Source of the DNA: Alphaproteobacteria bacterium
GTDB taxonomy: Bacteria > Pseudomonadota > Alphaproteobacteria > UBA828
DNA: 64,000 nt
Assembly: GCA_965220745.1 (NCBI GenBank)
Contig: CBDCQT010000012.1
Coordinates: forward strand, 4,661-68,660
Reading direction: 5' to 3'
In this document: one piece after another, positions 9,129 to 59,536 of the stretch
Numbering within the stretch: position 1 is the stretch's first letter
How the letters are laid out: each line of letters begins with the position of its first letter
Position numbers and translations under genes: made by a program
The notes under the pieces: generated by a model
Database searches by the model: none
What the model was told of the DNA's origin: nothing
The model's input: only the letters and a program-made list of their open reading frames with translations

Positions 9129-9908
9129 ATGAGCGAGCAGGCGTTTTTCAGAGTCGAGAAGCTGCAAAAGAGGTTCGGTGGCTTGGCCGCCATCGACGGG
9201 TTGAGTTTCGAACTGAAAGAGGGTGCCATTCACGGGCTCATCGGCCCGAATGGAGCGGGAAAGACCACCGTCTTCAACGTGATCACCGGCTATTACAGGC
9301 CGACCGCAGGCAAGATCTTCTACCAGGGCGAGTCCATCGGTGGCCTGCAGCCGCATCAGGTGGCCGCCAAGGGGTTGGTCCGCACATTCCAGGAAACGAC
9401 GCTCTTCCGGGAGTTCACCACCTTCGAGAATGCTCTGATGGGGTGCTATCTCCACACCAAGAGCAACATGATCTCGGCTTTGTTCAACACCCAGCGAGCG
9501 AGCGAGCGGGCGAGCGACGCGAAGACCCTCGAGGTGCTGGAATTCCTCGGCCTCGCCGATCGCAAGGACGAGCTTGCTTCCAATTTGCCGCATGGCCTGC
9601 AGCGCGCCCTCGGTATCGCCGTCGCTCTCACGACGGAGCCCAAACTACTGCTGCTGGACGAGCCCTTCGCCGGGATGAACCCGGAAGAGACACGCAACAT
9701 GATGGAGTTGATCCAGAAGGTGCGCGAAAGCGGCATCACTATCTTGCTGGTCGAGCACGACATGCAGGCGGTGATGGGCCTCTGCGAACGAATTACCGTG
9801 GTGAATTTCGGTCAGCTGTTAATGGAAGGCGCGCCGGACGAAATCAAGGCCAACAAGGACGTCATCGAAGCCTATTTGGGAACCGGCCTCAATGCTGCTC
9901 GAAGTTAA
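9129..9908 (+). CDS. ABC transporter ATP-binding protein, LivG-like (HAAT family)
   Basis: Walker A GPNGAGKTT, signature LPHGLQRAL, Walker B LLLLDEP. Confidence 0.85.
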   Translation: MSEQAFFRVEKLQKRFGGLAAIDGLSFELKEGAIHGLIGPNGAGKTTVFNVITGYYRPTAGKIFYQGESIGGLQPHQVAAKGLVRTFQETTLFREFTTFENALMGCYLHTKSNMISALFNTQRASERASDAKTLEVLEFLGLADRKDELASNLPHGLQRALGIAVALTTEPKLLLLDEPFAGMNPEETRNMMELIQKVRESGITILLVEHDMQAVMGLCERITVVNFGQLLMEGAPDEIKANKDVIEAYLGTGLNAARS

Positions 9909-11376: not shown

Positions 11377-12355
11377 CGAGAGTCCCCCCTCCACGGTTCC
11401 ACAGCCAGGTCGACCACTGCAGAACTTTTCTGGGCAGACTGACCAGGCCTTCGGGCAGGAACAGCACGGTCGCGATCAGCACCAGGCCGTAGAAGCCGGG
11501 CCGCAGCTCATCCAGGCCGCGTAGGGATTCGTCGATGATCGACAGCACCGTGACGCCGATGATTGGACCCGCGAAGTGGCCCATACCGCCCACCAGCACC
11601 CAGACCAGGACGAAGAGCATCTGCTTCAGGCCGAACAGACCCGGATTAATCGCGGTGACGTAGTGCGCCACCATGGCGCCCGCGATGCCCGCGAAAAATC
11701 CGCCGGTGACGAATGCGATGGTGCGGAACTGGCGCACGTCCACTCCGACCGATTGCGCCAGCGTGTCCTTGTGATGCACCGCGTGAAAGACGAAGCCGTA
11801 GCGGGAATGCTCGATACGGTACATGACGAACAGGCAAATCAGCCCCACGATCAGCGCGAAGAAGTAGTAGGGCACCGGGGCACCCAGATCGATGTACAGC
11901 AGCTCGCCCAGATCGATTTCCAGAACCGGGATGCGCCGCAGGCCGCGAAAACCGCCGAACGGATCATTGAATTGGACCCAGCAGAGCCGGATTGCCTCGG
12001 CGGCGGCGAAGGAGCCGATGAGGAAGTAGAACCCCTTCATGCGGAAGAGCGGGAAACTCAGAACGTAGGCGATGGCGGCAGCGGCCACGCCGCCAAGCGG
12101 CATGGATATCCACGGTGAGATAGGAAGCGCCGCGAGAAGCGCGCTAGCATAGGCGCCCACGCCCATGATCACGGCATGGGCCAGCGAAAACTCGCCGGTG
12201 ATGGCGATGAAACGGTAGCTCACCACCAGAATGATGTTGATGAACATGAAAATCAGGAAATCGAGCTGATACGGCCGCAGGACGAACGGCAGGACGCAGA
12301 CGACCGCCAGGACGACGGCAATTCCGGCGAGATTGCGGTGCGTCCGGCTAAACAC
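11363..12355 (-). CDS. ABC transporter permease, LivM-like
   Basis: 330-aa polytopic membrane protein of the branched-chain amino acid permease family. Overlaps the upstream livH-like gene. Confidence 0.85.
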   Translation of the reverse strand: MFSRTHRNLAGIAVVLAVVCVLPFVLRPYQLDFLIFMFINIILVVSYRFIAITGEFSLAHAVIMGVGAYASALLAALPISPWISMPLGGVAAAAIAYVLSFPLFRMKGFYFLIGSFAAAEAIRLCWVQFNDPFGGFRGLRRIPVLEIDLGELLYIDLGAPVPYYFFALIVGLICLFVMYRIEHSRYGFVFHAVHHKDTLAQSVGVDVRQFRTIAFVTGGFFAGIAGAMVAHYVTAINPGLFGLKQMLFVLVWVLVGGMGHFAGPIIGVTVLSIIDESLRGLDELRPGFYGLVLIATVLFLPEGLVSLPRKVLQWSTWLWNRGGGTLVKRE

Positions 12356-13232
12356 TCTCGCGCGCTCCCATGATCCCGGTCGGCTTGACGATCAGCACCA
12401 GAAGCATCAACGCCAGACCCAGGATCGTCGCGATCTCGCCGCCAATGTAGGTGGTGACGAACGTATGGAAGAAGCTGTACACGACGGCCGCAATCAGAGC
12501 GCCTTCGATGCTGCCCATGCCGCCCACGATCATGACGATGAAGGCGGTGACCAGAACCGGATGGCCCATCTGCGGCGTGATGCGCACGAGCGGCGACATG
12601 ACCGCGCCACCCATGCCCGCCATTGCCGCGCTGATCACCATCGCCAGCATGGAAATCTTGCCGATGCCGATGCCCTGCAGCGCCGCCGCTTCGGGATTTT
12701 GGGCGCAGGCGCGCATGGCCCAGCCGATCCTGGTGCGGCTCATGAAGAGCCAGAAGGCAACGAGGATGAATGCCGCGATCGCGAAGACGAACAGCCGCGA
12801 GTGGGAGATCGTGACGCTCTCGATCCCGAAGGCATGCCACGATTCCTTGAAATAGGGCGTCATGTTCTTCATGAGCCCTTGGCCGAACAAATAAACAACG
12901 AGAACCTCGAGGACGAACATCATGCCGACGGAAACGATGAGGCCGCCGAACAAGTTGCCGCGCATCGGGCGAAACAGCGCGCGTTCCATCAGGAGGCCGA
13001 TGGCCACCGTCAGGAGTGTCGCAATAACGATCGAGGCGAAGAACGGGATACCGACTTCCGCGTAGAGATACCAAGTTGCATAGGCGCCCACCATGTAGAG
13101 AGCACCGTGGGCGAAATTGACGATCTGCATGATGCCAAAGATCAGCACCAGGCCGACCGCAAAAATTGCGGTGAAACTGCTCGCAATCAGCGAGTTCATG
13201 ATGGTCTGAAGAATGAGTTCCAGATCCGTCAT
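12348..13232 (-). CDS. ABC transporter permease, LivH-like
   Basis: 294-aa polytopic membrane protein, MTDLELILQTIMNSL...NFAHGALYMVGAY typical of the LivH family. Confidence 0.85.
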   Translation of the reverse strand: MTDLELILQTIMNSLIASSFTAIFAVGLVLIFGIMQIVNFAHGALYMVGAYATWYLYAEVGIPFFASIVIATLLTVAIGLLMERALFRPMRGNLFGGLIVSVGMMFVLEVLVVYLFGQGLMKNMTPYFKESWHAFGIESVTISHSRLFVFAIAAFILVAFWLFMSRTRIGWAMRACAQNPEAAALQGIGIGKISMLAMVISAAMAGMGGAVMSPLVRITPQMGHPVLVTAFIVMIVGGMGSIEGALIAAVVYSFFHTFVTTYIGGEIATILGLALMLLVLIVKPTGIMGARESV

Positions 13233-17240: not shown

Positions 17241-17297
17241 TGATCCTCCCCCATCGAGTTGGTCCACCCTTAGGTTATGGAAAGAGGAGGACCGACG

Positions 17298-17576
17298 ATG
17301 GCAAGGAAGCGTTACAAGCCCGAGGAGATCGTGAGCCTGCTGCGGCGGGCTGAGGTTCTGAACGGCCAGGGCATGTCGATGGCGGACGCGATCCGCGAGC
17401 TTGGGATCAGCGAGGTTACCTTCTACCGCTGGCGCAAGGAGTATGCCGGGATGAGCGGCGATCAGCTCCGCCGTTTGAAGGAGCTCGAGAAGGAGAACGA
17501 GCGGCTGCGCCGTGCGGTCTCCGATCTGACGCTGGACAAGCAGATTCTCAAAGAGGCCGCAGGGGGAAACTTCTAA
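17298..17576 (+). CDS. IS3-family transposase OrfA (HTH)
   Basis: MARKRYKPEEIVSLLRRAEVL...EVTFYRWRKEYAGMS...LKELEKENERLRRAVSDLTLDKQILKEAAGGNF. An AGGAGG RBS precedes the ATG. Confidence 0.85.
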   Translation: MARKRYKPEEIVSLLRRAEVLNGQGMSMADAIRELGISEVTFYRWRKEYAGMSGDQLRRLKELEKENERLRRAVSDLTLDKQILKEAAGGNF

Positions 17577-17650
17577 GCCCCTCGCGCCGGCGCCAGTGCA
17601 TCGATCATGTCTGTGACCGGCTCGGGGTCTCGGAACGCCGCGCTTGCCGG

Positions 17651-18469
17651 GTGCTGGGGCAGCACCGCTCGACCCAGCGCCGCATCCCGCGCGGCCGCGA
17701 CGACGAGGACCGCCTGGTCGCGTACATGATCGAGCTGGCCCGCCAGTACGGCCGTTACGGCTATCGCCGCATCGCGGCCCTGCTTCGCGATGCCGGCTGG
17801 CAGGTCAACGACAAGCGGATCGAGCGCTTGTGGCGGCGCGAGGGGCTGAAGGTGCCCGGCAAGCAACCGAAGCGGGGCCGGCTTTGGCTCAATGACGGCT
17901 CCTGCATCCGGCTGCGCGCCGAGAGGGCGGATCACGTCTGGTCCTACGACTTCGTCCATCACCGGACGTATGACGGCAGGGCCTTCCGCATGCTCAACGT
18001 CCTGGACGAGTTCACCCGCGAGAGCCTGGTCATCCGGGTGCGCAGGAGGCTTTCCTCGATCGACGTCATCGATGTGCTGACCGACCTGTTCATCCTGCGC
18101 GGCATTCCGACCTGGATCCGTTCCGACAACGGTCCGGAGTTCGTCGCCGAGGCCGTCAGGCGGTGGATCGCTGCGGTCAGCGCCCGCACCGCCTTCATCG
18201 AGCCGGGCTCACCCTGGGAGAACGGCTACATCGAGAGCTTCAATGCGCGGCTGCGCGACGAGCTCCTGAACGGGGAGATCTTCTACACCCTGAAGGAAGC
18301 CCAGGTTCTCATCGAATCGTGGCGGTGCCATTACAACGCGATCCGCCCACACGGCAGCCTGGGATACCGGCCGCCCGCCCCGGAGACGATCATCATGCCA
18401 AGCTGGCCGCCCGGCTCCGCTACGCTCCGCCGGCCACCCAGCTTGGCCGAGGAACCCGCGATGCACTAA
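17651..18469 (+). CDS. IS3-family transposase OrfB (DDE/rve integrase core)
   Basis: ...ADHVWSYDFVHHRT...WIRSDNGPEFVA...PWENGYIESFNARLRDELLNGE... The frame is open upstream to ~17573 (..RRACRVLGQHRSTQRR..), implying an OrfAB fusion by frameshifting near the orfA stop. Confidence 0.85.
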   Translation: MLGQHRSTQRRIPRGRDDEDRLVAYMIELARQYGRYGYRRIAALLRDAGWQVNDKRIERLWRREGLKVPGKQPKRGRLWLNDGSCIRLRAERADHVWSYDFVHHRTYDGRAFRMLNVLDEFTRESLVIRVRRRLSSIDVIDVLTDLFILRGIPTWIRSDNGPEFVAEAVRRWIAAVSARTAFIEPGSPWENGYIESFNARLRDELLNGEIFYTLKEAQVLIESWRCHYNAIRPHGSLGYRPPAPETIIMPSWPPGSATLRRPPSLAEEPAMH

Positions 18470-18503
18470 CATTCGACCTGGACCAGTCGACGGGGGCAGG
18501 TCA

Positions 18504-22493: not shown

Positions 22494-22620
22494 TTTCGTT
22501 CCTCCGCATATTGGTTGCCGATCATCCTTCCCGCGCAGTATGTGAGCTCACAGGCAATGAGGCCTAGACGATACCGAGTCCGGTCGACTGGCCCCGAGGG
22601 AGCGAGCCAGTGCGAATGTT

Positions 22621-23046
22621 AGAGCATTCTTCGGCCACAGAGAATCTTTAGAATTTTCAATCGCTTGGATTTGTTACTTAGGATGCGGGCTGGTGAAGGA
22701 GGCCAACCTGCATGACACGACCTCTTTCGATTGATCTGCGCCGCCAAGTGGTGACGGCGGTGGTAGATGGCGACATGAGCCGCCGGAGCGCGGCGAAGCG
22801 GTTCGGCATCGAGCCGTCGACGGCGATCAAGTGGGTCGCAGCCTGGCGCCGCGCGGGCAGCTATCGCCCCAGAGCGCAAGGCGGCGACAGGCGCTCGCAG
22901 CGGATCGAGGCACGGACAGGGGTGGTCCTCTCGCTGGTGGACGAGACCCCGGACTTCACGCTTTCGGAGACCGTCGCCCATCTGGAAGACGAGCACGGTC
23001 TGCGGGTCTCACAGAGCACTATGTGGCACCTGTTCCTCCGCCGGGA
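22621..23046 (+). mobile_element. IS630-family element, 5' fragment only
   Basis: Begins TAGAGCATTCTTCGGCC..., alignable with the end of the complete copy at 31724. Similarity to the complete copy stops near 23045. Confidence 0.7.
22712..23046 (+). pseudogene. IS630-family transposase N-terminal (HTH) fragment
   Basis: [42 protein letters not shown]... is closely similar to the product of 31249..31632. The remainder of track ORF 22712..23137 is unrelated read-through. Confidence 0.7.
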
Positions 23047-26723: not shown

Positions 26724-27896
26724 TCAGGACGACGCTGCTGCTGGCGACTCGCCGCCCGCCATTGCGGCCTCGATGGCCTTTCCGATGCGCTCGGTGGCGG
26801 CCTGCAGGTCGCGGTCGCCGACATGGGCGTATCGCAGGGTCATTGTGGGGTTGGCGTGCCCGAGCATGCGCGCGACGGTGGACAGGGGAACGCCCCGGGC
26901 GACGGCCTGGCTGGCAACGGTATGCCTGAGATCGTGCAGGCGGACGTCGTCGAGACCGGCTTCCTTCCGCGCCCGGCTCCAGAGGTGAAGCGTGTCCGAA
27001 AGCGGTTTGTCAGGATGCGTCGGGGACGGGAACACGTAAGGGCTTGCGGCACGCGGCTGGCGGGCGAGGATGGCCTGCGCAACCTGACTCAACCGGACCC
27101 TTCGCGGCCCGGTCTTGGTGTTGGCGAGGTCGAGGCGGTCGCCGTCGACCTCCGACCATCGGAGCTTCAGGATCTCACCCACCCTGCAGCCGGTGAGCAG
27201 GAGCAGCCGGATGACGTCGGCCTGTTGCCGGCGGGAGGGCTGCTCCCCGACCAGCCGATCAAGGACGCGGTGGAGCCTTTCGATCTCTTCGGCGGAGAGG
27301 AAGCGGGTGAGTTTCGGACGGGGGTTCTTGGTGATGCCCTTGACGGGAGCGGTCCCGACATGGCCGGCGGCGAGGGCGGCGTTCATGATCTGGCTGATGA
27401 TTTCGAGCGCCTTGTTGGCTCCGCCCGGCGCGGTGCGGCTGTAGGCGTCGAACCACCGCTCGACGTCGATCCGCCGGATGGCGTCCAGCGGGAGGCGGCC
27501 GAAGGCGGGGATCAACTGCCGCCTAAGTACAAGGTCGGCGGATCGGCAGGACGACGGGGCGCAGCGGCGGCGGTACGCCGGCCACCACTCGACGAGAACG
27601 AAGTCGCGGAACAGGGGAGCGCGGGAACCTCCTTCCACCTTGCACGGGACGGTTCCCAGGCGGAGCGCCAGGGCTCCCTTCCGAGCGTCCTCGACGGTCA
27701 TGAGCGCAGTCGGGCCGATAGTCCTCCTGACCGGCTCTCCCTGGACGCGCCCGTGCCAGACGAAGCTGCGATGCCCGGACGGGCGCACCCGCACGCCGAG
27801 GCCGGGCACCTCGCTGTCCCACACTACGTATTCCGTCTTGCCCGGCTTCAACCTGCCGACGCCCGCGTCGGTCAGCCGGAGCCTCCGCCCCTTCAC
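26724..27896 (-). CDS. tyrosine recombinase/integrase, P4-like with DUF4102 arm domain (type B, copy 1)
   Basis: A GTG start overlaps the upstream stop (GTGA). VKGRRLRLTDAGVGRLKPGKTEYVVWDSEVPGLGVRVRPSGHRSFVW... and the catalytic ...LLLLTGCRVGE...HDLRHT...LGHANPTMTLRYAHV. Confidence 0.85.
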   Translation of the reverse strand: MKGRRLRLTDAGVGRLKPGKTEYVVWDSEVPGLGVRVRPSGHRSFVWHGRVQGEPVRRTIGPTALMTVEDARKGALALRLGTVPCKVEGGSRAPLFRDFVLVEWWPAYRRRCAPSSCRSADLVLRRQLIPAFGRLPLDAIRRIDVERWFDAYSRTAPGGANKALEIISQIMNAALAAGHVGTAPVKGITKNPRPKLTRFLSAEEIERLHRVLDRLVGEQPSRRQQADVIRLLLLTGCRVGEILKLRWSEVDGDRLDLANTKTGPRRVRLSQVAQAILARQPRAASPYVFPSPTHPDKPLSDTLHLWSRARKEAGLDDVRLHDLRHTVASQAVARGVPLSTVARMLGHANPTMTLRYAHVGDRDLQAATERIGKAIEAAMAGGESPAAASS

Positions 27897-28198
27897 GCCT
27901 GCCTCCCCGACAGGACGGGAGACAGGGTCTCGACCGCTTCGCGAACCGTGGCGTCGGACAGGTGCGCGTATTTCAGAGTGGTCGACGCGTTCTCGTGACC
28001 GAGCAGGCGACCGACGGTGCGCACGCTCTCGCCGCAGAGCAGTGCCATGCTGGCGTAGGAATGTCTCGTGTCGTGCAGGCGGACGTCCTGCAGCCCGGCT
28101 TCCTCCCTCACGCTGCGCCAGAAGGGATCCAGCCACAGCCACGGGGTGCGCAAACCGGCAACCGGGAAGACCCATCCGGACTGTTGCTCGGCGCGCAT
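27893..28198 (-). pseudogene. tyrosine recombinase, C-terminal catalytic fragment only (type A, truncated copy)
   Basis: ...WVFPVAGLRTPWLWLDPFWRSVREEAGLQDVRLHDTRHSYASMALLCGESVRTVGRLLGHENASTTLKYAHLSD... aligns with the C-terminus of the 29477..30610 product. The arm and core-binding domains are missing. Confidence 0.7.
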
Positions 28199-28312
28199 GT
28201 TGGCCGCCGATCGGCGTAGTAAAGCGTTGATTCGCTTCGATTCCGAGGGGTCAAACTTCGACGCCGAACAACGGGTGAGGGGCGCGGCGCCTGCTGGCGG
28301 CGGCGCGCCGGG

Positions 28313-29473
28313 TCAGCCGCCGTTTCCGGCGTCGCCGCCATCCATTGTCCGCTCGATGGCTGCGCCGATTCGTTCCGCTGCCGCCTCGGTCTCCCGGTCG
28401 CCGACATGGGCGTAGCGCAGCGTCATGCCCGGATTCTTGTGACCCAGCAGGCGGGAGACAACCGGCAGCGGAACGCCTTGCAGGACGGCATGGCTGGCGA
28501 ACGTATGCCGAAGGTCATGAATTCGCACGTCTTCGATGCCGGCTTCCCTGCGCGCCAAGTACCAGAGCGGCAGGTGAGTCGACAGCGGCCGCGCCGGATC
28601 GAACGGCGAGGGAAAGACGAAGGCGCTGCCCGATCGCGGCTGGCGCTCCAGGATGGCGCGGGCCGGCGCATTCAGGAACACCTGTCTCGGTCCGGTCTTG
28701 GCGTCGGCGAGGTTGAGCGTGTCTGCGTCCACATCCTGCCAGCGCATGGTCACAATCTCGCTCTTGCGGCAGCCGGTCAGCAGCAGCAGGCGGATGATGT
28801 CAGCCTGTTGCACGCGCGACGGCCGCGCGCCGGCGTAGCGGTCCAGCACGCGGTGGAGGCGATAGACTTCATCGCACGAGAGGAAGCGGGTGAGCCTGGG
28901 TCGGGGGTTGCGCTTGATGCCGTGCGTGGGGTTGGTGTCGAGGTGGCCGCAGTCGATCGCATGGTTCAGTATCTGGCGGAGCACGTTCAACGCACGATTG
29001 GCCCCGCCCGGCGCAGTCCTGCTGTACTCGTCGAACCAGCGGGTCACGGCGATCCGGCCGATCCGGTCTAGCGGCATCGGGCCGAAGGCCGGAAGCAGGA
29101 GCCCGCTCAGGACCAGGCGCACGCCCTTTTGCGTCGACGGCTTGCATGTGTCGAGCCGCGCCTGCGCCGGCCCCGCGACGAAGTCCGCGAAGGTCGGGAC
29201 CGCTCCCCGTTCCGGCCTGCGGCCGTGCGGCGCGGTTTCGATTTCGAGGCACCGCGCACGCGCTTCCTCGACGCCCATGAGCGCGGCAGGTCCGAGGGTG
29301 ATCCTGCGCGCGCCGCCCTCGCCCTTGCGGCAATACACGAAGCTGCGGTGTCCCGACGGGCGGACGCGGACGCCGAGGCCCGCAAGGCGCGTGTCCCAGA
29401 CCGTATACTCGCGCGCCGCCGGCACAAGCTTCGCCACGTTGGCGTCGGTCAGACGCCGCCTCTTCGCGGCCAT
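28313..29473 (-). CDS. tyrosine recombinase/integrase, P4-like with DUF4102 arm domain (type B, copy 2)
   Basis: MAAKRRRLTDANVAKLVPAAREYTVWDTRLAGLGVRVRPSGHRSFVY...LLLLTGCRKSE...HDLRHT...LGHKNPGMTLRYAHV. The ATG lies 3 nt after the upstream integrase stop. Confidence 0.85.
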   Translation of the reverse strand: MAAKRRRLTDANVAKLVPAAREYTVWDTRLAGLGVRVRPSGHRSFVYCRKGEGGARRITLGPAALMGVEEARARCLEIETAPHGRRPERGAVPTFADFVAGPAQARLDTCKPSTQKGVRLVLSGLLLPAFGPMPLDRIGRIAVTRWFDEYSRTAPGGANRALNVLRQILNHAIDCGHLDTNPTHGIKRNPRPRLTRFLSCDEVYRLHRVLDRYAGARPSRVQQADIIRLLLLTGCRKSEIVTMRWQDVDADTLNLADAKTGPRQVFLNAPARAILERQPRSGSAFVFPSPFDPARPLSTHLPLWYLARREAGIEDVRIHDLRHTFASHAVLQGVPLPVVSRLLGHKNPGMTLRYAHVGDRETEAAAERIGAAIERTMDGGDAGNGG

Positions 29474-29476
29474 GCC

Positions 29477-30610
29477 TCAACCCTCCACCAGTGCGGCGCC
29501 GACGGTCTCGGCTGCCTCGCGCACCATCGCGTCGGACAGATGCGTGTATTTCAGCGTCGTCGCCGGATTGCGGTGCCCGAGGAGGCGGCCGATGGTCAGC
29601 ACCGTCTCGCCCTGCGCGAGCGCCATGCTGGCGTACGTGTGCCGGCAATCGTGAAGGCGGACGTCGGACAGACCGGCTTCCGCTCTGACGCGATGCCAGA
29701 ATTTGCCAAGCGTCACCGCGTGCACGAAGCCGGCCGTCCGCGGCGAGGGAAAGATCCAGGTTGCCGTACGAGGCAGTCCGTCGAGGACCGCGCGCGCGGG
29801 GGACGAGAGCCAGACCGTGCGCGGCCCCGACTTGGAGTCGCGCAGGAACAGCTTGCCCTCGCGGTACTCGCGCCACTTGAGCGAGACGATCTCGCCCTTG
29901 CGGCATCCGGTGAGCAGCAGCAGCCGTACGATCGCCACGACCTGCGGATTATCGGCCTCGTGGCGTGCCAGCACTTCGCCCAGCCGGCGCATCTCGGCGG
30001 TAGACAGGAAGCGCTCCCGGCCCTGGCGGCGGTAGCGCTTGATGTCCGCGCACGGATTGGTCCCCTCCGGGCGATAGCCGTAGACCTCGGCCTGGCTCAT
30101 GATGACCGAGAGCACCGGAGCCGAGCGGTCGGCCGCCACCGGGGTCTTGTGGAGGGAGGCGAACCATTGCCGGACGTCGCTCGCGGCGATGTCTGCGATC
30201 GGGCGCCCCTCGAACCAAGGCAGGATCTGGTTCTTGTAGTAGCCCCGGTTGACGTTGAGCGTCGAGGGCTTCCAGTTCCGGGCATAGCGGCGGAAGACTT
30301 CTTCGGCGACCGTCTCGAAGGCGACGTCCGCCGGTGCTGCAGTCTCGTCGCCGCTACCGTTGCGGATCGCGGCCAGCAGGCTCCTGGCCCGCTCGCGGGC
30401 CTCGTCCAGGCCAATGGCCCCGGCCTGGCCGACGATCTTCCAGAACCGCCGCCCGTTGTGCTGACTGTGGATGAAGTAACGCCTGGCGCCTGAGGGCAGG
30501 ACCCTTACGCCAAAACCCTTGAGTTCGCGGTCGCGCACGTCGTAGGCGGACTTGCGGGGCTTGAGCGCATCGACCCGGCGTTCGCTGAGGCGAACCGTGG
30601 CCATTGACAT
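29477..30610 (-). CDS. tyrosine recombinase/integrase, P4-like with DUF4102 arm domain (type A, intact copy)
   Basis: MSMATVRLSERRVDALKPRKSAYDVRDRELKGFGVRVLPSGARRYFI...LLLLTGCRKGE...HDCRHTYAS...LGHRNPATTLKYTHLSD. Confidence 0.85.
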   Translation of the reverse strand: MSMATVRLSERRVDALKPRKSAYDVRDRELKGFGVRVLPSGARRYFIHSQHNGRRFWKIVGQAGAIGLDEARERARSLLAAIRNGSGDETAAPADVAFETVAEEVFRRYARNWKPSTLNVNRGYYKNQILPWFEGRPIADIAASDVRQWFASLHKTPVAADRSAPVLSVIMSQAEVYGYRPEGTNPCADIKRYRRQGRERFLSTAEMRRLGEVLARHEADNPQVVAIVRLLLLTGCRKGEIVSLKWREYREGKLFLRDSKSGPRTVWLSSPARAVLDGLPRTATWIFPSPRTAGFVHAVTLGKFWHRVRAEAGLSDVRLHDCRHTYASMALAQGETVLTIGRLLGHRNPATTLKYTHLSDAMVREAAETVGAALVEG

Positions 30611-30698
30611 TCCTCCGGCGTTCCGTTGCAGCCGGGGCGAAATCGGGGATCGACTCCGTGTCCTCCGGCTAGATCAGGAGGAAAAAAGCAACGCTGTG

Positions 30699-31247
30699 TC
30701 AGTATGTTAGAACCGTAGGTGCGCCGGCGGGTGTGAAGTTGTCTGTGGCTTCGCCGATGGCGTCCCAGAGTTCCGGGACGGTGCGGGCGGCGCGTCGCTT
30801 GAGGTAGGCCTTGAACTTGGAGAAGGCCATCTCGATCGGGTTGAGGTCGGGGCTGTAGGGCGGCAGGAAGTGGAGCTCGGCCCCGGCCTGGTGAATGGCG
30901 TCGCGGACAGCGCTGCTGCGGTGGCAGGCAAGGTTGTCCATCACCACGATGTCGCCGGGCTTGAGCGTGGGCACCAGCACTTGGTCTACGTAGGCGAGGA
31001 AGGCGGCGCCATGCATGGCGCCGTCGAGCACCATGGGAGCGGTCATCCCGCTCAGCCTGAGGGCACCGACGAAGGTTGTGGTCTTCCAGTGGCCATGGGG
31101 CACAGGGGCGCGGCACCTCTGTCCGCGCGGAGCCCGGCCCGAGCGTCTCGCCATCTTGGTGGACGCGCCTGTTTCATCGACGAAGACGAGCTTCTCAGGG
31201 TCGAGATCGGGCTGGGCTTCGACCCAGGCGCGCCTGCGCCTGAGCAC
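30699..31247 (-). CDS. IS630-family transposase, DDE catalytic part
   Basis: ...[25 protein letters not shown]...[13 protein letters not shown]...[23 protein letters not shown] (DDE_3 signature). Confidence 0.8.
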
Positions 31248-31248
31248 G

Positions 31249-31632
31249 TCAGCGCGTTGCTGCTCGCTGGCGTGCGCGGTTTTTTTTGAAGGTGATGCCG
31301 CGGCGGTGAAAGAAGCGCCACACCGCGCTCTGGGAGACCCGCAGGCCGTGCTCGTCCTCCAGGTGGGCGGCGATCTCCGCCAAGGTCATGTCCGGGGTCT
31401 CGTCCAGGAGCGCAAGCACCACCTCGGCCCGTGCCTCGATCCGCTGCGAGCGTCTGTCGCCGCCCTGCGCTCTCGGCCGCCAGCTGCCCGTGCGGCGCCA
31501 GGCGCTGACCCACTTGATCGCCGTCGACGGCGCGATGCCGAAGCGTCTCGCCGCGCTCCGCCGGGACATGCCGCCATCGACCACCGCCGTCACCACCCGA
31601 CGACGTAGATCATTCGAAAGAGGTCGCGTCAT
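31249..31632 (-). CDS. IS630-family transposase, N-terminal HTH part
   Basis: [42 protein letters not shown]... The frame ends shortly after an A8 tract (T8 on the + strand, 31280-31287). The catalytic part continues in another frame. Confidence 0.8.
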
Positions 31633-31722
31633 GCAGGCTGGCCTCCTTCACCAGCCTGCATCTTGAATCACATCTACAAGCAATTGAAAATTCTAAAGAT
31701 TCTATAAGGTCGAAAAATGCTC

Positions 31723-31891
31723 TAGAGCAATATCCGACCTGAGTGAATCGTATTAGTTTCCAATGACTTAATGCCCAACAGTCAGATGAACACGCTTTGT
31801 GCCGGAAGCTTGGCTAATGCGTCTGTGATGATTGTCAAGTTGCTTCGCCTTCAAAGCAGGCTGTGATCCAGGCTGATCGGATATTGCTCTA
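31723..31891. mobile_element. MITE related to the adjacent IS630-family element
   Basis: Perfect 15-bp terminal inverted repeats TAGAGCAATATCCGA (31723-31737) and TCGGATATTGCTCTA (31877-31891) enclose a ~140-bp AT-richer non-coding core. The termini resemble the IS630 end TAGAGCATTTTTCGACC. TA lies at both ends. Confidence 0.6.
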
Positions 31892-32050: not shown

Positions 32051-32596
32051 ATGCTGGTTGTGGAGACGATAGCGCGGATCCGTCGGGATCATCTTGTGAA
32101 GGGCGTTCCGATCAAGAAGCTCGCCCGTGATTTGAGGGTTTCGAAGAACACGATACGCAAGGTGGTTCGGGGCGATGCGACCTCGCACACGTATGAGCGC
32201 ACGATCCAGCCGATGCCGAAGCTTGGACCGTGGGTGGACGAGCTGGAGCGCCAGCTGGAGGCCAACGAGAGGACGCCACGCCGGCTGCGTCTGTCTCTGC
32301 TGCGGATCTACGAGGACCTTGCGGCCCAGGGCTACGAGGGCGGTTATGACGCGGTTCGCCGCTACGCCCGGGCGTGGCGGCGCCGGCGGCGCCTGTTGTC
32401 ACCGTCTCAGGCCTATGTGCCTCTGAGCTTCGATCCGGGCGAGGCCTACCAGTTCGACTGGAGCCACGAGTACGCGCGTCTGGCGGGGGCGACGAGCCGT
32501 GTGAAGGCCGCGCAGATGCGGCTCTGCTACAGCCGGATGCAGCTGGTCCAGGTCTTCCCGCGCGAAGGCCAGGAGATGGTCTTCGAGGCGCACGAG
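32051..32596 (+). pseudogene. IS21-family transposase IstA, N-terminal fragment truncated by IS3-family insertion
   Basis: MLVVETIARIRRDHLVKGVPIKKLARDLRVSKNTIRKVVRG...GEAYQFDWSHEY... The frame is cut at 32597 by the IS terminal repeat TGACCTGCCCCCGTCGAC. No istB or distal part follows. Confidence 0.8.
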
Positions 32597-33375
32597 TGAC
32601 CTGCCCCCGTCGACTGGTCCAAGTCGAATGTTAGTGCATTGCGGGTTTGCCGGCCAAGCTGGGTGACTGGCGGAGCGTAGCGGAGCCGGGCGGCCAGCTT
32701 GGCATGATGATCGTCTCCGGGGCGGGCGGCCGGTATCCCAGGCTGCCGTGTGGGCGGATCGCGTTGTAATGGCACCGCCACGATTCGATGAGAACCTGGG
32801 CTTCCTTCAGGGTGTAGAAGATCTCCCCGTTCAGGAGCTCGTCGCGCAGCCGCGCATTGAAGCTCTCGATGTAGCCGTTCTCCCAGGGTGAGCCCGGCTC
32901 GATGAAGGCGGTGCGGGCGCTGACCGCAGCGATCCACCGCCTGACGGCCTCGGCGACGAACTCCGGACCGTTGTCGGAACGGATCCAGGTCGGAATGCCG
33001 CGCAGGATGAACAGGTCGGTCAGCACATCGATGACGTCGATCGAGGAAAGCCTCCTGCGCACCCGGATGACCAGGCTCTCGCGGGTGAACTCGTCCAGGA
33101 CGTTGAGCATGCGGAAGGCCCTGCCGTCATACGTCCGGTGATGGACGAAGTCGTAGGACCAGACGTGATCCGCCCTCTCGGCGCGCAGCCGGATGCAGGA
33201 GCCGTCATTGAGCCAAAGCCGGCCCCGCTTCGGTTGCTTGCCGGGCACCTTCAGCCCCTCGCGCCGCCACAAGCGCTCGATCCGCTTGTCGTTGACCTGC
33301 CAGCCGGCATCGCGAAGCAGGGCCGCGATGCGGCGATAGCCGTAACGGCCGTACTGGCGGGCCAGCTCGATCATG
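32597..33375 (-). mobile_element. IS3-family element, truncated copy (right-hand 779 bp only), slightly diverged
   Basis: Starts with the same terminal repeat TGACCTGCCCCCGTCGACTGGTCCA. It is collinear with the distal orfB part of the full copies, with a few substitutions near the end (..RQSPSLAGKPAMH vs ..RRPPSLAEEPAMH). It stops abruptly where the next copy begins. Confidence 0.8.
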
Positions 33376-33409
33376 TGACCTGCCCCCGTCGACTGGTCCA
33401 GGTCGAATG

Positions 33410-34228
33410 TTAGTGCATCGCGGGTTCCTCGGCCAAGCTGGGTGGCCGGCGGAGCGTAGCGGAGCCGGGCGGCCAGCTTGGCATGATGATCGTCTCCGGG
33501 GCGGGCGGCCGGTATCCCAGGCTGCCGTGTGGGCGGATCGCGTTGTAATGGCACCGCCACGATTCGATGAGAACCTGGGCTTCCTTCAGGGTGTAGAAGA
33601 TCTCCCCGTTCAGGAGCTCGTCGCGCAGCCGCGCATTGAAGCTCTCGATGTAGCCGTTCTCCCAGGGTGAGCCCGGCTCGATGAAGGCGGTGCGGGCGCT
33701 GACCGCAGCGATCCACCGCCTGACGGCCTCGGCGACGAACTCCGGACCGTTGTCGGAACGGATCCAGGTCGGAATGCCGCGCAGGATGAACAGGTCGGTC
33801 AGCACATCGATGACGTCGATCGAGGAAAGCCTCCTGCGCACCCGGATGACCAGGCTCTCGCGGGTGAACTCGTCCAGGACGTTGAGCATGCGGAAGGCCC
33901 TGCCGTCATACGTCCGGTGATGGACGAAGTCGTAGGACCAGACGTGATCCGCCCTCTCGGCGCGCAGCCGGATGCAGGAGCCGTCATTGAGCCAAAGCCG
34001 GCCCCGCTTCGGTTGCTTGCCGGGCACCTTCAGCCCCTCGCGCCGCCACAAGCGCTCGATCCGCTTGTCGTTGACCTGCCAGCCGGCATCGCGAAGCAGG
34101 GCCGCGATGCGGCGATAGCCGTAACGGCCGTACTGGCGGGCCAGCTCGATCATGTACGCGACCAGGCGGTCCTCGTCGTCGCGGCCGCGCGGGATGCGGC
34201 GCTGGGTCGAGCGGTGCTGCCCCAGCAC
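33410..34228 (-). CDS. IS3-family transposase OrfB
   Basis: 272-aa product identical to that of 17651..18469. Confidence 0.85.
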   Translation of the reverse strand: MLGQHRSTQRRIPRGRDDEDRLVAYMIELARQYGRYGYRRIAALLRDAGWQVNDKRIERLWRREGLKVPGKQPKRGRLWLNDGSCIRLRAERADHVWSYDFVHHRTYDGRAFRMLNVLDEFTRESLVIRVRRRLSSIDVIDVLTDLFILRGIPTWIRSDNGPEFVAEAVRRWIAAVSARTAFIEPGSPWENGYIESFNARLRDELLNGEIFYTLKEAQVLIESWRCHYNAIRPHGSLGYRPPAPETIIMPSWPPGSATLRRPPSLAEEPAMH

Positions 34229-34302
34229 CCGGCAAGCGCGGCGTTCCGAGACCCCGAGCCGGTCACAGACATGATCGATGCACTGGCGCCGGCGCGAGGG
34301 GC

Positions 34303-34581
34303 TTAGAAGTTTCCCCCTGCGGCCTCTTTGAGAATCTGCTTGTCCAGCGTCAGATCGGAGACCGCACGGCGCAGCCGCTCGTTCTCCTTCTCGAGCTCCT
34401 TCAAACGGCGGAGCTGATCGCCGCTCATCCCGGCATACTCCTTGCGCCAGCGGTAGAAGGTAACCTCGCTGATCCCAAGCTCGCGGATCGCGTCCGCCAT
34501 CGACATGCCCTGGCCGTTCAGAACCTCAGCCCGCCGCAGCAGGCTCACGATCTCCTCGGGCTTGTAACGCTTCCTTGCCAT
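34303..34581 (-). CDS. IS3-family transposase OrfA
   Basis: Product identical to that of 17298..17576. Confidence 0.85.
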   Translation of the reverse strand: MARKRYKPEEIVSLLRRAEVLNGQGMSMADAIRELGISEVTFYRWRKEYAGMSGDQLRRLKELEKENERLRRAVSDLTLDKQILKEAAGGNF

Positions 34582-34846
34582 CGTCGGTCCTCCTCTTTCC
34601 ATAACCTAAGGGTGGACCAATCCGATGGGGGAGGATCAATTGGAGGTCAGGAATGGTCGGGAGTTTACTTCGGAGTGCTTACTTGGTGAATATTTGCTTC
34701 GATCCGACGCCTCACTCGAATTCGAGCGTTCTTTCAAGCTATTGACGTACAAAGAGTTTGACCGCTCGTGATGCAGACCGTGTTGGTGGTAAGAAATGCG
34801 GGTTAGACTCCGTGCCGGCTGCAATCCGGCTGAGGGAGCGCCGCCG

Positions 34847-44766: not shown

Positions 44767-45351
44767 ATGGGCACGTTGGCATTCGAGCATCATCTGCTGA
44801 AGGAAGCCGGCACGAGCCCCAACAACGGGGCGCTGCCGCTCATCGTCTATCGGGGCGCCATCGATGTCGGCGGCGCCGAGCCGGAAGCGGCGGTCGAGCG
44901 CCACTTCGACTCCAACGGTTGGGGCGACGGCTTTCGCGGCGATACCTTTCCTTTCCACCACTACCACTCCATCGCCCACGAGGTGGTGGGCTGCGCACGC
45001 GGTGCGGCGCAGCTCCAGTTCGGCGGGCCGGAGGGGCCGGTGGTGGACGTGCAGGCGGGCGATGCCGTGCTGATCCCCGCCGGCGTGGTCCACGCTCGCC
45101 TCGACGACAAGCCGGGTTACGTCAGCGTCGGCGCCTACCCGCCGGGGCAGCAGCCGGACCTCTGCGTGCTGTCGAACCAGGATGCCGAGGTCTCGAACGC
45201 GCGCGAGGATACCGAGGGCCTGGAGCTGAAGGTGATCGGCCAGACGGAGATGCCCGCGATCAGGGCCTCCATCGCCGATGTCCCGCTGCCCGCGACCGAC
45301 CCGCTCGCCGGCGGCAGCGGCCCCGTGGCCGAGCTCTGGCTGGAGCGCTGA
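44767..45351 (+). CDS. YjlB-like cupin domain protein
   Basis: An AAGGGAGGAG RBS. ...FHHYHSIAHEVVGCARGAAQLQFGGPEG...GDAVLIPAGVVH... The last 35 nt are duplicated at 47168-47202. Confidence 0.7.
   Translation: MGTLAFEHHLLKEAGTSPNNGALPLIVYRGAIDVGGAEPEAAVERHFDSNGWGDGFRGDTFPFHHYHSIAHEVVGCARGAAQLQFGGPEGPVVDVQAGDAVLIPAGVVHARLDDKPGYVSVGAYPPGQQPDLCVLSNQDAEVSNAREDTEGLELKVIGQTEMPAIRASIADVPLPATDPLAGGSGPVAELWLER
45317..45351. repeat. 35-bp direct repeat, copy 1 (3' end of cupin gene including stop)
   Basis: GCGGCCCCGTGGCCGAGCTCTGGCTGGAGCGCTGA matches 47168-47202 with one mismatch (G/A). Confidence 0.9.
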
Positions 45352-45715
45352 GCGCCGGCGCCAGCCGTTGGATCCGATAATCTTGTGCGCGTAGTACTAA
45401 CGAGCACACTCTCGCAATCGTACATTTCCTGATGCAGTGTTGATTCTGACGTCTGCCTCAAGTCATGCTGTCTACACCACGTTACCCATTCAAGCTTACC
45501 AGCTCGGTAATGCACATGGTGCCATCTGTCTTGCTGAGCCACCTATTCGGAAAATGTAAGTTTCGCCCAATGGTTCATTCGACGCCGTTTCGCTTTGAGA
45601 ACTGTCAAGGAATTAATTTGACTTGTATGTGTATTTCCCCCAACTACAAATTACCCGTTAATTTTCTCCAAGGACACGCCATGTGCCGGCACCGTATCTA
45701 AAATCCCTGTTATGA

Positions 45716-46540
45716 TTATTTTATAACTGACTCAATAGAATACAAATTGCATTTATCGATAGTAGATCGCATTATAAAGTAGTGATCGCTTGCCTCCTTG
45801 AACTCTCCATTACCTATAGCCATCTGGCGTTCATTTTCTGTTCGGAAAACAACGAAGTCTTCGATTCCACGAGCTGCGAAATCTCTTTCCACGTAAGCCT
45901 TATTTAGGGATTCCCATCTGCCAATCGGGCTATTCTTGTCTGCCGTATAATATCTATCTTGAAAGAATTCGTCACAATACAGGACAGGCCTAAATGTGTA
46001 ATACAGTTCCGAAATCAGGGGTCCAACAAGTATAGAGATGGTTTCTTGATCGCAAACGTATTCACCAGGTTCCTTTTGAGTGCTTCCGGCCTCAAAAACT
46101 TCCATGAAATTGCCGCAATCATACATTAGAGCGATTCTCTGAAGAAGTGCAGTGAGAGACTGTCGTATTTCATCTTGATGGTTGGGTAGCTCCCTGTGGC
46201 CAAATACAAGAAGGGCCGCCTCTTCTTTTTCCCAGCTTTTTTCTTGCCAAATCAAATACTCTATCCTATGACTTAGTACTCTTAGTCGCTTAACTGCATC
46301 AGAATTAACAAAGTCTGTATATAGCGCTACAGCGCGGGAGACTGCAGCGCGTTGGTTCTCCTGGATAGCGGAAACGGCTGCCCGATCATTCTCTTGCTTT
46401 GCTATCTCCCCCTGAATTTGCTGTCCCTGCTCAGCAATATTTTGCTGTATGATGATTGCAAATGCCGCAACAATCACGGTTGCGATTACCGTGGGCTCTA
46501 TCCATTTGCGCACGTAGGATCTAATGTTCAGAAACTGCAT
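45716..46540 (-). CDS. hypothetical membrane-anchored protein in AT-rich insert
   Basis: 274 aa. An N-terminal TM segment (IEPTVIATVIVAAFAIII) is followed by a Gln/Glu-rich helix and a ~200-aa Cys/Tyr/Phe-rich domain. Codon usage and GC content are clearly unlike the flanking genes. No domain recognised. Confidence 0.65.
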   Translation of the reverse strand: MQFLNIRSYVRKWIEPTVIATVIVAAFAIIIQQNIAEQGQQIQGEIAKQENDRAAVSAIQENQRAAVSRAVALYTDFVNSDAVKRLRVLSHRIEYLIWQEKSWEKEEAALLVFGHRELPNHQDEIRQSLTALLQRIALMYDCGNFMEVFEAGSTQKEPGEYVCDQETISILVGPLISELYYTFRPVLYCDEFFQDRYYTADKNSPIGRWESLNKAYVERDFAARGIEDFVVFRTENERQMAIGNGEFKEASDHYFIMRSTIDKCNLYSIESVIK

Positions 46541-46962
46541 CCAGGTCCTCCAAGAGCTAACTGGCGCAGATGATTCGTCACGTCGTGTGTCTCATGCACA
46601 TAAACCGTCAGGACAAAAGCTCTCGGCTTTGAAAAATTTGAGATAGAATCGTGCGATCTATTCGTGGCTCCCCCAAGACTTCTCTCGGTGCAGTGCAGGA
46701 GCCGAACACAGTAAGAGAGATGGAGACGTCTGCGGCGCTGGCGACCGAAGCACTTTTGCCAAGCTAAGCGCATTCGAACGCCCGCAGAGCGACTGGTCTC
46801 GACGTATAGCCAATCATGACGATCAAGGTGAGAGTGGGCGCCGGGCACATGCCCTGAAGGCATCGCCTGGCGCCCCGCACCCGTCGGGAGTGCACGCCGT
46901 TCCACGCTTCAACCCGATGTCAGCGCTCGGTCCTACGGACGATTCCTATTCGCTCTCATGCG

Positions 46963-47085
46963 CTATCGGCAGACGGCAGGGTTGCGCGCACACGGATTGG
47001 CGTCCGCATCTGGAATGGCCGAAAGGGCACCTGCGCCTAGACCCAGCACGATCGCCGTCACAAGGGCGAGCATGATCATCTTCAT
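46963..47085 (-). CDS. possible 40-aa secreted peptide
   Basis: A GAGGAG RBS, then MKMIMLALVTAIVLGLGAGALSAIPDADANPCARNPAVCR. Below the track cutoff, with no homology support. Confidence 0.25.
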   Translation of the reverse strand: MKMIMLALVTAIVLGLGAGALSAIPDADANPCARNPAVCR

Positions 47086-57894: not shown

Positions 57895-59085
57895 ATGAAG
57901 ACGGTCGTGCGGAACAAGCAGTGGGCGGAGAAGTATCCCGACCTCGGGACCGAGCCGGTGCCCACCGAGCCCTACTACTCGGACGAACACTACGCCCTCG
58001 AGCGCGAGCGCATCTTCCGCCGGTGCTGGATCAATGTGGGCCGCGTGGACGAAATCCCCGAGCCGGGCGATTACTTCGTGCGCGAGATCGCCATCTGCAA
58101 AGTCTCCGTGCTGATCATCCGGGGCTCGGACGGTGTCGTGCGCGGCTTCCACAACGTCTGCTCGCATCGCGGCAACACTCTGGTGCTGGACGGGCGCGGC
58201 ACCTGCCCCGGCAGCGTCTACTGCCACTTCCATAACTGGATTTACAGCGACACGGGCGAGCTCATCCGCGTGCCCGACGAGGAGAACTTCTTCGACCTCG
58301 ACAAGCGCGACCACGGGCTCACCCCGGTCAACACGGATTTCTGGGAGGGCTTCGTCTTCGTCCACCTTGAACCGGAACCCGCGGAGACGCTGCGGCAATA
58401 TCTCGGCGGCGTCGCCGACCAACTCGACGGCTGCCCGTTCCACGAGATGGGATTGATGCAGACCTACAAGGTGGAGGAGCAAGCCAACTGGAAGGTGGCG
58501 CTCGACGCGCAGAACGAGCTCTATCACCTGCCGTTCCAGCACCGCCTGATCGTGGGTGATGCCTTCGTTAAGAACGACAAGGGCCTCATTCGCTTCCAGG
58601 ACGTCAATCTCTACAACTATCACAGCGTCTGGTCGTGCGAGAACAACCCGACTCGCGCACTGCCACCGCTGGAGAGCATGCTGTTCGACGGCGACGACAG
58701 GGCGCCCGTGATCCGCATCCCGCAGATGATCGGCGAGTTCGACTTCTTCGTGGTGTTCCCGAACTTCGTGCTGCTGCTGTTCGATGTCGGCAATTCGACG
58801 AGCTACATCAGCTACAATTTTTGGCCGCTCGCCGTGGACCGGACGATCTGGGAGATCCGCATGCATTTCAGGGAACCCAGGTCCACGCGTGAGCGGCTGC
58901 AGCAGGAGTATTTCAAGTGCATCATTCGCGATGCGCTGCAAGAGGACGCATTCGCGCACGAGAACATTCATGCGGGTCTCGCCTCGCGCGCGAAGTCGCA
59001 CGTGATCCTGCAAGACGAGGAGGCGCCGATCCGCTACTTCCACAAGGTGCTGGAGGATCACTGCGGGTTCTACCGGAACGCGTGA
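57895..59085 (+). CDS. Rieske [2Fe-2S] aromatic-ring-hydroxylating oxygenase, alpha subunit-like
   Basis: Rieske motif CSHRGNTLV...CHFHNW. The C-terminal catalytic domain has ...NELYHLPFQH... Confidence 0.85.
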   Translation: MKTVVRNKQWAEKYPDLGTEPVPTEPYYSDEHYALERERIFRRCWINVGRVDEIPEPGDYFVREIAICKVSVLIIRGSDGVVRGFHNVCSHRGNTLVLDGRGTCPGSVYCHFHNWIYSDTGELIRVPDEENFFDLDKRDHGLTPVNTDFWEGFVFVHLEPEPAETLRQYLGGVADQLDGCPFHEMGLMQTYKVEEQANWKVALDAQNELYHLPFQHRLIVGDAFVKNDKGLIRFQDVNLYNYHSVWSCENNPTRALPPLESMLFDGDDRAPVIRIPQMIGEFDFFVVFPNFVLLLFDVGNSTSYISYNFWPLAVDRTIWEIRMHFREPRSTRERLQQEYFKCIIRDALQEDAFAHENIHAGLASRAKSHVILQDEEAPIRYFHKVLEDHCGFYRNA

Positions 59086-59116
59086 GGGGCGCTGGCGGAA
59101 GGAAGGAGCGCGCACG

Positions 59117-59440: not shown

Positions 59441-59536
59441 AGGGGAAGGGCTGGAACAACAGGCCACTATCTGTAGACACTATCTATATAAACACGTTGT
59501 GACCATACTGCGGAAGAGTGATCATCCGAACTTAAT

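Follow-up and report, generated by a model that had tools for sequence, protein, structure and literature searches.

Why should four tyrosine-recombinase genes lie one behind the other on the same strand, and do they work singly or in pairs? The question is raised by positions 26,724 to 30,610 of a 64,000-nucleotide (nt) stretch of contig CBDCQT010000012.1, from an alphaproteobacterium of the UBA828 lineage; the whole stretch is here denoted the window. An earlier note on this DNA had described four open reading frames (ORFs) in the order A-B-A'-B, and the ORF list bears this out. Comparison with related genomes indicates that A and B form a genuine, conserved and translationally coupled two-integrase unit. 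We consider it likely that a family of integrative elements (genomic islands) in Proteobacteria, to which the two copies of the window belong, uses this unit as its integration module. The genes are as follows.

29477..30610, minus strand: integrase A, 377 amino acids, with Arm-DNA-bind_3, SAM-like and catalytic domains; R-K-H-R-H-Y intact
28313..29473, minus strand: integrase B1, 386 amino acids, R-K-H-R-H-Y intact; translationally coupled to A across a 3-nt gap
27893..28181, minus strand: A' remnant, the C-terminal ~94 codons of an A gene of a second lineage; active site without the first arginine and the lysine
26724..27896, minus strand: integrase B2, 390 amino acids, GTG start, intact; GTGA overlap with the A' stop

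The coupling that the note had described can be seen in the sequence. The A stop codon TGA (29477-29479) is followed after 3 nt by the ATG of B1 at 29473, with the ribosome-binding site GGAGG inside the end of A, and the A' stop and B2 start overlap as GTGA at 27893-27896. The A' ORF as called spans 27893-28198 (101 amino acids). DNA comparison with a full-length relative (locus L102; L numbers denote related loci fetched for comparison) places the beginning of homology at 28181, about codon 280, and the ATG at 28198 is fortuitous. The C-terminal motifs quoted for the two types are present: HDCRHTYAS/HDTRHSYAS and LKYTHLSD/LKYAHLSD in type A, HDLRHT and LRYAHVGDR in type B.

Pfam detects a Phage_integrase domain in all four ORFs and SAM-like/core-binding domains (Phage_int_SAM_3/Phage_int_M) in A, B1 and B2. 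The DUF4102-type arm domain, Arm-DNA-bind_3, which the note had described for every intact copy, reaches 37.1 bits in A and 29.3 in B1; at 26.9 bits, B2 falls marginally short of the cut-off of 27. An N-terminal DUF4102-type arm domain, a SAM-like core-binding domain and a catalytic domain with R-K-H-R-H/W-Y define the IntSXT/P4-like subgroup of arm-binding integrases (Smyshlyaev et al. 2021; PMC8138268), and both A and B carry the three domains and the catalytic hexad. With the NCBIfam XerC/XerD models A and B score 61-65 bits against cut-offs of 330-335, and no membership was found in the Xer, integron-integrase or GMT GmtZ equivalogs of NCBIfam (best scores 61-74 bits, cut-offs 220-600). 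The closest solved structures, XerA, XerD and HP1 Int, align to the catalytic domain only.

By pairwise alignment the two modules are only moderately similar, as the note had judged by eye. A and A' share 61.5% of residues over 91 amino acids (75.7% at the DNA level), B1 and B2 share 58.2% (68% at the DNA level), and A is 39.1% identical to B1 and 38.2% to B2. Each module has its own close relatives elsewhere. Relatives of A in the first lineage reach 90-93% identity, and the second lineage is abundant, with relatives of B2 at 83-88%. In L102 and L103 a B2-like gene is preceded by a complete A of 375 amino acids with the same 4-nt overlap as in A'-B2. The window is 89.7% identical to L102 in DNA from 28181 (A codon ~280) to 26759, and at the protein level A' matches residues 282-375 of the complete L102 A with 92.6% identity. 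These comparisons identify the two modules as different lineages of one A-B family.

Homologs of A number in the thousands, and the best 120 clusters are 77-93% identical. A scan of one genome per species with A yielded 79 loci. A B-type gene comes next, in the same orientation, in essentially all of the loci in which A reaches 40% identity and the contig does not break off. Fifty further A-B pairs were followed in detail; all are on the same strand, and the sequence of A stop, 3 nt and B ATG (GGAGGGnTGAnnnATG) is nearly invariant, a minority having an ATGA or GTGA overlap instead. No lone close homolog of A or B was seen in the fetched loci, except at contig ends or in obviously truncated copies. 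In 36 distinct A sequences and 40 of B the catalytic R, K, H, R, H and Y never vary, apart from one alignment gap at the tyrosine of a single B. Pairwise identities of A and of B correlate with r = 0.95 over 630 pairs, indicating co-divergence, and some combinations are shuffled: in L013-L015 the A proteins are 94-95% and the B proteins 71-74% identical.

The hosts are mostly metagenome-assembled genomes (MAGs) of uncultured Alphaproteobacteria, some with several copies (at least 10 loci in isolate 777528ef, 5 in OZ244041 and 3 in a Paracoccaceae MAG). The megaplasmid of Shewanella oneidensis MR-1 has two genes annotated as site-specific integrase with a 4-bp overlap. Gene 1 is nearest to A (41.8%, versus 32-33% in the cross-comparison) and gene 2 nearest to B1 (39.5%). 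Because this pair is orthologous in the same order, the A-then-B order is ancient. A 95% identical unit is found on plasmids of S. baltica. On a plasmid of Vibrio europaeus two integrase genes overlap, known as a pair by adjacency and not by A/B order. The best relative in IMG/VR is 29% identical, and a link to phages was rejected.

Four independent single-integrase islands or remnants might also have collected at a hotspot, A and B being functionally unlinked. The region is rich in insertion sequences (IS), with IS630, IS3, IS21 and IS4/IS5-like copies, and integrase remnants are known to accumulate at hotspots. Such chance adjacency is refuted by the A-then-B order with 3-nt or overlapping junctions in ~50 loci from many genomes and two proteobacterial classes, and we regard it as extremely improbable. 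Adjacency is thus no peculiarity of this genome; the opposite outcome is what the note had named as fatal to its proposal.

Where does the mobile unit begin? The copies become homologous abruptly, ~130 nt upstream of A; further left their flanks are unrelated. In every related locus the conserved block opens, ~113-115 nt upstream of A, with the palindrome CGCACC-TNC-GGTGC-TAA, which in its exact form occurs once per locus. It is preceded by a variable spacer of 6-7 nt and, before that, an almost invariant ACACC (~40 independent junctions). The palindrome arms covary, CGCACC..GGTGC being replaced by CGCATC..GATGC in 9 loci. In the window the corresponding features belong to the first module, here denoted element 1 (30724 to ~28182: palindrome, leader, A, B1 and tail); the A'-B2 remnant is denoted element 2.

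30725..31727, minus strand: IS630-family insertion sequence, interrupted target of element 1; 87-93% identical to intact copies
30724..30735, minus strand: attL identity segment CACACC-CGCCGG, ACACC half-site plus 6-nt spacer
30710..30723, minus strand: left terminus of element 1, palindrome CGCACC-TAC-GGTTC; element-side (P') core site
30611..30709, minus strand: conserved leader (P' arm) with TGACA..AGCGTTGCTTTTTTCCTCC, CCCCGGCTGCAAC and the ribosome-binding site GGAGGA, from alignments

The note had reported no obvious att site and an IS630 copy merely adjacent, 60 bp upstream of the first gene. The att site lies at 30710-30735, IS630-derived DNA stops at 30725, 114 nt upstream of the A start, and the IS630 is the interrupted target itself. 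A metagenome scan with a 20-mer of this IS630 found 11 intact copies of a close relative in JGI metagenomes, to which the window IS keeps its identity as far as 30725. Intact copies read TTCACATCCGCCG up to the junction and AGTGCCAAAAC...CTCTAG beyond it, the bases right after the junction being AGTGCC; the window reads TTCACACCCGCCG up to the junction and GCGCACCTACGGTTCTAA beyond it. The IS630 target site (attB) is TTCACATCCGCCGAGTGCC. Where the window has CACACC-CGCCGG the intact IS630 has CACATC-CGCCGA, a 10/12 match to the core of element 1. Because of this comparison, ACACC and the spacer sit at the target's own position and element 1 starts at 30724/30723. The transposase gene is frameshifted (ORFs 31249-31632 and 30699-31247; left terminal inverted repeat (TIR) at 31708-31727) and reads into the att site, the last 26 nt of the ORF, including the stop at 30699, being element sequence. 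The alignment with intact copies thus indicates that element 1 inserted into an IS630 transposase gene. A second empty site comes from L041, where the element interrupts an IS3 transposase gene immediately after AACACCGACCAG; intact IS3 copies in L102 and L049 continue with GGCAGCC.

ACACC as the element's own terminus was considered for attL and rejected, as the intact IS630 and IS3 copies carry ACAYC plus spacer at the insertion point; the element's own CACACC is present at the right arm. The attL identity segment thus appears, on alignment, to be target-derived or shared between target and element, and its spacer probably contains the crossover. Spacers are alike within a lineage and different between lineages: (C)GGTCA in L013/L014, GGGCA in L016/L018/L020 and (C/A)G(A/C)CGG in the element 1 group. 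The 10/12 match of IS630 to the element 1 core suggests that overlap homology with the target is required. The leader may hold arm-type sites and a promoter; nothing in it matched the sigma-70 promoter consensus. There is no tRNA gene in the window, as the note had observed beside the module, and none consistently near 29 related loci. An integron-like array left of the site was rejected, core-like motifs being almost absent in the ~10 kb upstream of ~50 elements. In L081, L087 and L091 (~9867-9885), which represent the same insertion within one population, the junction takes three forms set apart by a 12-13 nt unit of ACACC half-site and spacer; this suggests ongoing recombinase activity at attL.

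If the left end is an attL, a right end should repeat it. For every locus, the 12 nt in front of its palindrome served as a query for a further copy in that locus, with at most 1 mismatch allowed. Matches were found downstream only, with 0 upstream (~0.8 expected by chance). The right repeats are listed by distance.

L013, +7.2 kb: right repeat, CACACCGGTCAC / CACACCGGTCAA
L020, +11.2 kb: right repeat, GACACCGGGCAG / CACACCGGGCAG
L038, +13.6 kb: right repeat, ACACCGGCATCA / ACACCGGCATCT

A further repeat in L094, at +4993, is probably due to chance, as it is without the right-arm motif and inside a coding region. In L013 and L020 the downstream 12-mer is preceded by a conserved arm of ~60 nt, CGAGGAA..AGCG(C/T)TTC..GGCACACC, ending in GG directly before CACACC, and solo copies of this arm occur elsewhere in both loci. 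The L038 arm is shorter and weaker, with AAAGCGTTTC ~28 nt upstream and no GAGGAA. AGCGTTT-like motifs are present in both left and right arms and are candidate arm-type sites. With the repeats of L013, L020 and L038 and the IS630 and IS3 empty sites, the family shows the attL/attR repeats and empty sites of a classical integrative element; the right ends of both window copies are missing. Read from these alignments, the layout is attL (target ACACC and spacer joined to palindrome, leader, A and B), then cargo, then attR (right arm ending in CACACC, spacer, target).

The cargo of L013 and L020 consists mostly of ORFs without Pfam match. Directly right of B, the two S. baltica plasmids compared at 10.5-15.4 kb differ in cargo: pSBAL17501 (L099) has a BstXI-type restriction-modification (RM) system, and its sister plasmid pSBP2_mcr4 (L100) an Ec67-type retron together with an AAA-ATPase module; the two cargo blocks are separated by a 450-bp duplicate of the B 3' end. 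In L090 (1-21125) the A-B unit stands between mirror-image defence sets (ResIII helicase, HepT/MNT and N6_N4 methyltransferase on both sides), with a CAP12/TIR gene on one side as well and a tRNA-like 3' fragment directly right of the unit. Genes for Calx-beta-repeat autotransporters (1,887-2,928 amino acids) end convergently 0-95 nt from the B stop in several independent lineages (L030:12324-21110, L025:13527-19190, L006, L015, L027, L029, L031). L104 contains an FtsX 3'-end duplication that was rejected as an att repeat, being a segmental duplication that includes an FtsX fragment.

The sequence directly after B contains, in some loci, a third gene. L094 and L095 (4361-4666 in each) have an intact gene of 101 amino acids, DUF5372 (PF17342), with a 4-nt overlap with the B stop. 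It is truncated at varying points in L013, L022, L025/26 and L028 (about 12316-12555) and left as a frameshifted remnant in L102. The window has at this place the following feature.

28182..28312, minus strand: tail of element 1, 131 nt after B1, ending at the junction with the element 2 remnant; DUF5372 remnant candidate

By eye and without statistics, the tail (..CCTCACCCGTTGTTCGG..) weakly resembles the start of the DUF5372 gene (ACGCACCCGTTTCATCC) and is possibly a decayed remnant of it. By its position DUF5372 might, as a speculation, be an accessory factor like TnpC or Srap, or a directionality factor; the literature searched, which was limited to open-access papers, does not mention it. 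A different signal, GNTGCG-N3-GGTGTG, stands 0-40 nt after the B stop in L012, L020, L023, L035, L038 and L052. It is the inverse of the attL-type CACACC..CGCACC, with a 3-nt spacer, and is not the element end. In several loci a conserved stretch of ~200 bp and a higBA toxin-antitoxin pair follow, and in L023 (10120-10160) the motif forms a full palindrome. A group II intron after B, prompted by GGTGCG..GGTGTG, was rejected, as the window and four loci gave no Rfam match at gathering thresholds.

Is the mobile unit then the whole island, or only the recombinase block? A compact, cargo-less unit of ~2.5 kb (core, leader, A, B and short tail), similar to an IS or a Crypton, with the larger repeats as secondary rearrangements, would fit L090, which matches L087-L091 with 99% identity over exactly 2,483-2,489 bp while both flanks are unrelated. 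It would also fit the MR-1 and S. baltica plasmids, which have just a 2.9-kb unit in common, and the copies within a genome, homologous only from ~-130 to the B end. Local alignments of the left end with the 750 nt after B revealed no consistent inverted or direct repeat, and no core or 12-mer repeat was found within 800 nt. The sequence after B is ragged, with DUF5372 cut at differing points, which speaks for erosion and not for a defined end. Against the compact unit, too, direct repeats of ACACC and spacer lie 7-14 kb away in three loci, two of which have the conserved right arm, and this arm is also known from solo copies. We therefore consider the compact unit improbable and prefer the larger integrative element.

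How would two integrases serve one element? Insertion joins the element palindrome to a target that supplies ACACC and the 6-7 nt spacer. The resulting core is asymmetric, the crossover being flanked by ACACC to one side and by CGCACC (GGTGCG when read from the opposite strand) to the other. XerC and XerD at dif are two paralogs, each of which binds one arm of an asymmetric core and exchanges one strand pair; they are the model for the mechanism proposed here and differ from A and B in having no arm-binding domains, in their role in chromosome segregation and in not being a coupled mobile operon. After the manner of XerC/XerD, or of TnpA/TnpB of Tn554, A and B would act together as a hetero-tetramer, each protein binding one kind of half-site (the ACACC or the CGCACC side) and exchanging one strand pair within the spacer, and the DUF4102 domains would bridge to arm sites, the AGCGTTT motifs of both arms. 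An identity segment as short as 11-12 nt, with mismatches tolerated, would offer many usable sites and at least 10 copies per genome. From the coupling, the co-divergence, the intact active sites and the asymmetric core we infer a heteromer of A and B. The stricter proposal, that A and B are an obligate hetero-tetrameric, arm-assisted integrase (a lambda-type intasome of two subunits) whose target is a fixed ACACC plus a matching lineage-specific overlap of 6-7 nt, is put forward tentatively, as somewhat less probable than its negation.

The two proteins might instead divide the labour without forming a heteromer, one being the true integrase and the other serving excision directionality, dimer resolution, second-site control or regulation. 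The second core-like motif just after B in six loci, which is not the element end, speaks for this, and the shuffled pairs of L013-L015 suggest some functional independence. This arrangement sits poorly with the order, the coupling and all catalytic residues being kept in both proteins across Alpha- and Gammaproteobacteria, with the full domain set, arm-binding domain included, shared by A and B, and with the restriction of lone homologs to contig ends and truncated copies; we regard it as unlikely.

Several points weigh against an integrative element moved by an A-B heteromer. The basis for the heteromer is limited to the four features named above, and the B' side of the targets is without clear consensus. 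A right end was found in just 3 of ~50 loci, from two sub-lineages and none for the window lineages, and for complete elements neither excised circles nor empty chromosomal sites were seen. DUF5372 is decayed in most copies, so that many A-B copies may be defective for some step. The 2.49 kb, and no more, that L090 and L087 share at 99% fits module exchange or a minimal cargo-less element just as well as the island model. L025/26, L097/98 and L102/103 share at least 8-11 kb of the right flank and not the left, which would be explained either by a whole element present at two sites or by rearrangement at attL. In the search beyond 10 kb for the point at which L102 and L103 part, L104-L106 gave further rearranged copies and no clean right end.

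What happened in the window? For element 1, no cargo, right arm or second CACACCCGCCGG was found in the window, and the IS630 3' remainder expected after it is absent by TIR-pattern and peptide-pattern searches. Element 2 is without attL and ~280 codons of A', B2 being intact; no further integrase fragments were found in the window. Because the IS630 remainder and the attL and A' 5' part of element 2 are missing, the tail of element 1 must have come to adjoin the middle of A' through a deletion or rearrangement at a later time. This event would have removed the cargo, attR and IS630 remainder of element 1 and fused it to an A gene of a different lineage. The tandem accretion with loss of cargo proposed by the note therefore holds for element 1, which has neither cargo nor right end, and fails as a clean tandem, the IS630 remainder, an attL and about three quarters of A' being absent. 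A comparable truncated A (111 amino acids) stands beside an intact B in L104.

Other rearrangements surround the module. An IS630 right-end-like TIR (GGTCGGATATTGCTCTAG) abuts the left TIR of the interrupted IS630 (31708-31739), forming a palindromic junction of right and left inverted repeats (IRR-IRL) that may be what is left of an IS circle junction or of IS630 copies in tandem. Its right-end-like part, 31720-31739, was rejected as the missing IS630 end, as it belongs to a different, diverged IS630 end. A 5' fragment of an IS630 relative, 84% identical and inverted, occupies 22620-23043 (compared with 31301-31724). Two inverted IS3-family copies are 99.8% identical (17241-18503 and 33376-34638), with a 780-bp tandem duplication within the second (32596-33376 versus 33375-34155). 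Low-GC islands lie at 45000-47000 and 59000-61000 (0.51-0.54 versus ~0.66 for the window).

Does the pair belong to a named system? The note had taken paired bipartite modules (BIM) of recombinases as known, which is mistaken: a BIM, found in Betaproteobacteria, pairs one Famint19 recombinase with a conserved SMC-domain protein whose function is unknown (Van Houdt et al. 2012; PMC3414803). The A-B unit combines two integrases and is found in Alpha- and Gammaproteobacteria. Recombinase-in-trio (RIT) elements contain ritA-ritB-ritC, from three families of simple recombinases, with overlaps of 4-8 bp, several copies per genome and mobility deduced from distribution (PMC3414803). The A-B units resemble them in adjacent, overlapping tyrosine-recombinase genes and multiple copies per genome; they differ in having two recombinase genes per unit in ~50 loci and arm domains in both proteins, and the third coupled gene, in loci that have one, encodes DUF5372 (80-100 amino acids) and not a recombinase. 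The note had named membership of a bipartite or RIT family as a refutation, and the pair belongs to neither.

Tn554 requires both tnpA and tnpB and has a small tnpC, in an operon at the left end, and its insertion is oriented and site-selective without inverted terminal repeats (PMC10214605, PMC3414803). The A-B elements share with it the two-recombinase operon at the left end and, in some members, a small third coupled gene, DUF5372, which most copies have lost or keep in decayed form. In Tn554 the two proteins, TnpA and TnpB, are simple recombinases of 361 and 630 amino acids without the DUF4102 arm domain, TnpB with a long N-terminal extension, whereas A and B are arm-binding paralogs (39%) of equal size (377/386 amino acids) without such an extension, set apart from TnpA/B/C by description; their hosts are Proteobacteria and not Firmicutes (Tn554: Staphylococcus).

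Strand-biased circularizing integrative elements (SE; intA-tfp-intB-srap) and GInt (ginABCD) elements have a multi-recombinase operon at the 5' end of the island and variable cargo to its right (PMC5385486, PMC10214605). GInts have imperfect direct repeats of 10-17 nt, SEs leave a 6-bp spacer footprint, and att-site sequence variants occur (PMC5385486, PMC10214605). The A-B elements have the same layout, flanking repeats of 12 nt and junction microheterogeneity. SE and GInt need four genes, including Tfp/GinC, which has no catalytic motif, and Srap/GinD, whereas A and B are two catalytically complete integrases, with no gene between them and no fourth conserved gene in the loci examined. SEs are confined to Gammaproteobacteria with 1-2 copies per replicon, in contrast to at least 10 A-B elements per genome. 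Single-integrase islands and integrative conjugative elements of the P4/SXT kind share the domain architecture, the integrase next to attL and the flanking direct repeats. They have one integrase, usually a separate Xis, and typically tRNA or unique-gene targets, whereas A and B are a coupled pair without tRNA association and with a short ACACC-based site at many loci. The A-B module is thus not RIT, BIM, Tn554, SE or GInt. No description of a coupled DUF4102 integrase pair was found in the open-access papers searched, and an earlier description elsewhere is possible; the pair is apparently an undescribed two-integrase module among the multi-recombinase integrative elements.

Islands with a single P4/SXT integrase are textbook knowledge. 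Few elements depend on at least two tyrosine recombinases (Tn554, SE, GInt, RIT); these are poorly understood, and their mechanism is puzzling. To these the A-B family adds a simple two-protein case built from ordinary arm-binding integrases, with a readable asymmetric core, empty sites and, in some members, both ends, and cultured hosts exist in the Shewanella oneidensis MR-1 megaplasmid and the Vibrio plasmids. If A and B are an obligate hetero-tetramer, they would be a naturally 'reprogrammable' short-site integrase system, and this would explain islands at 10 or more copies per genome and their continued reshuffling of symbiont genomes and of plasmid defence hotspots. Should the spacer-matching rule hold, the system would be of possible interest for integrase engineering. 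Because homologs number in the thousands and some uncultured alphaproteobacterial genomes hold 10 copies or more, and because defence cargo is swapped (RM versus retron) on the Shewanella plasmids, the A-B family probably contributes to the plasticity of its host genomes.

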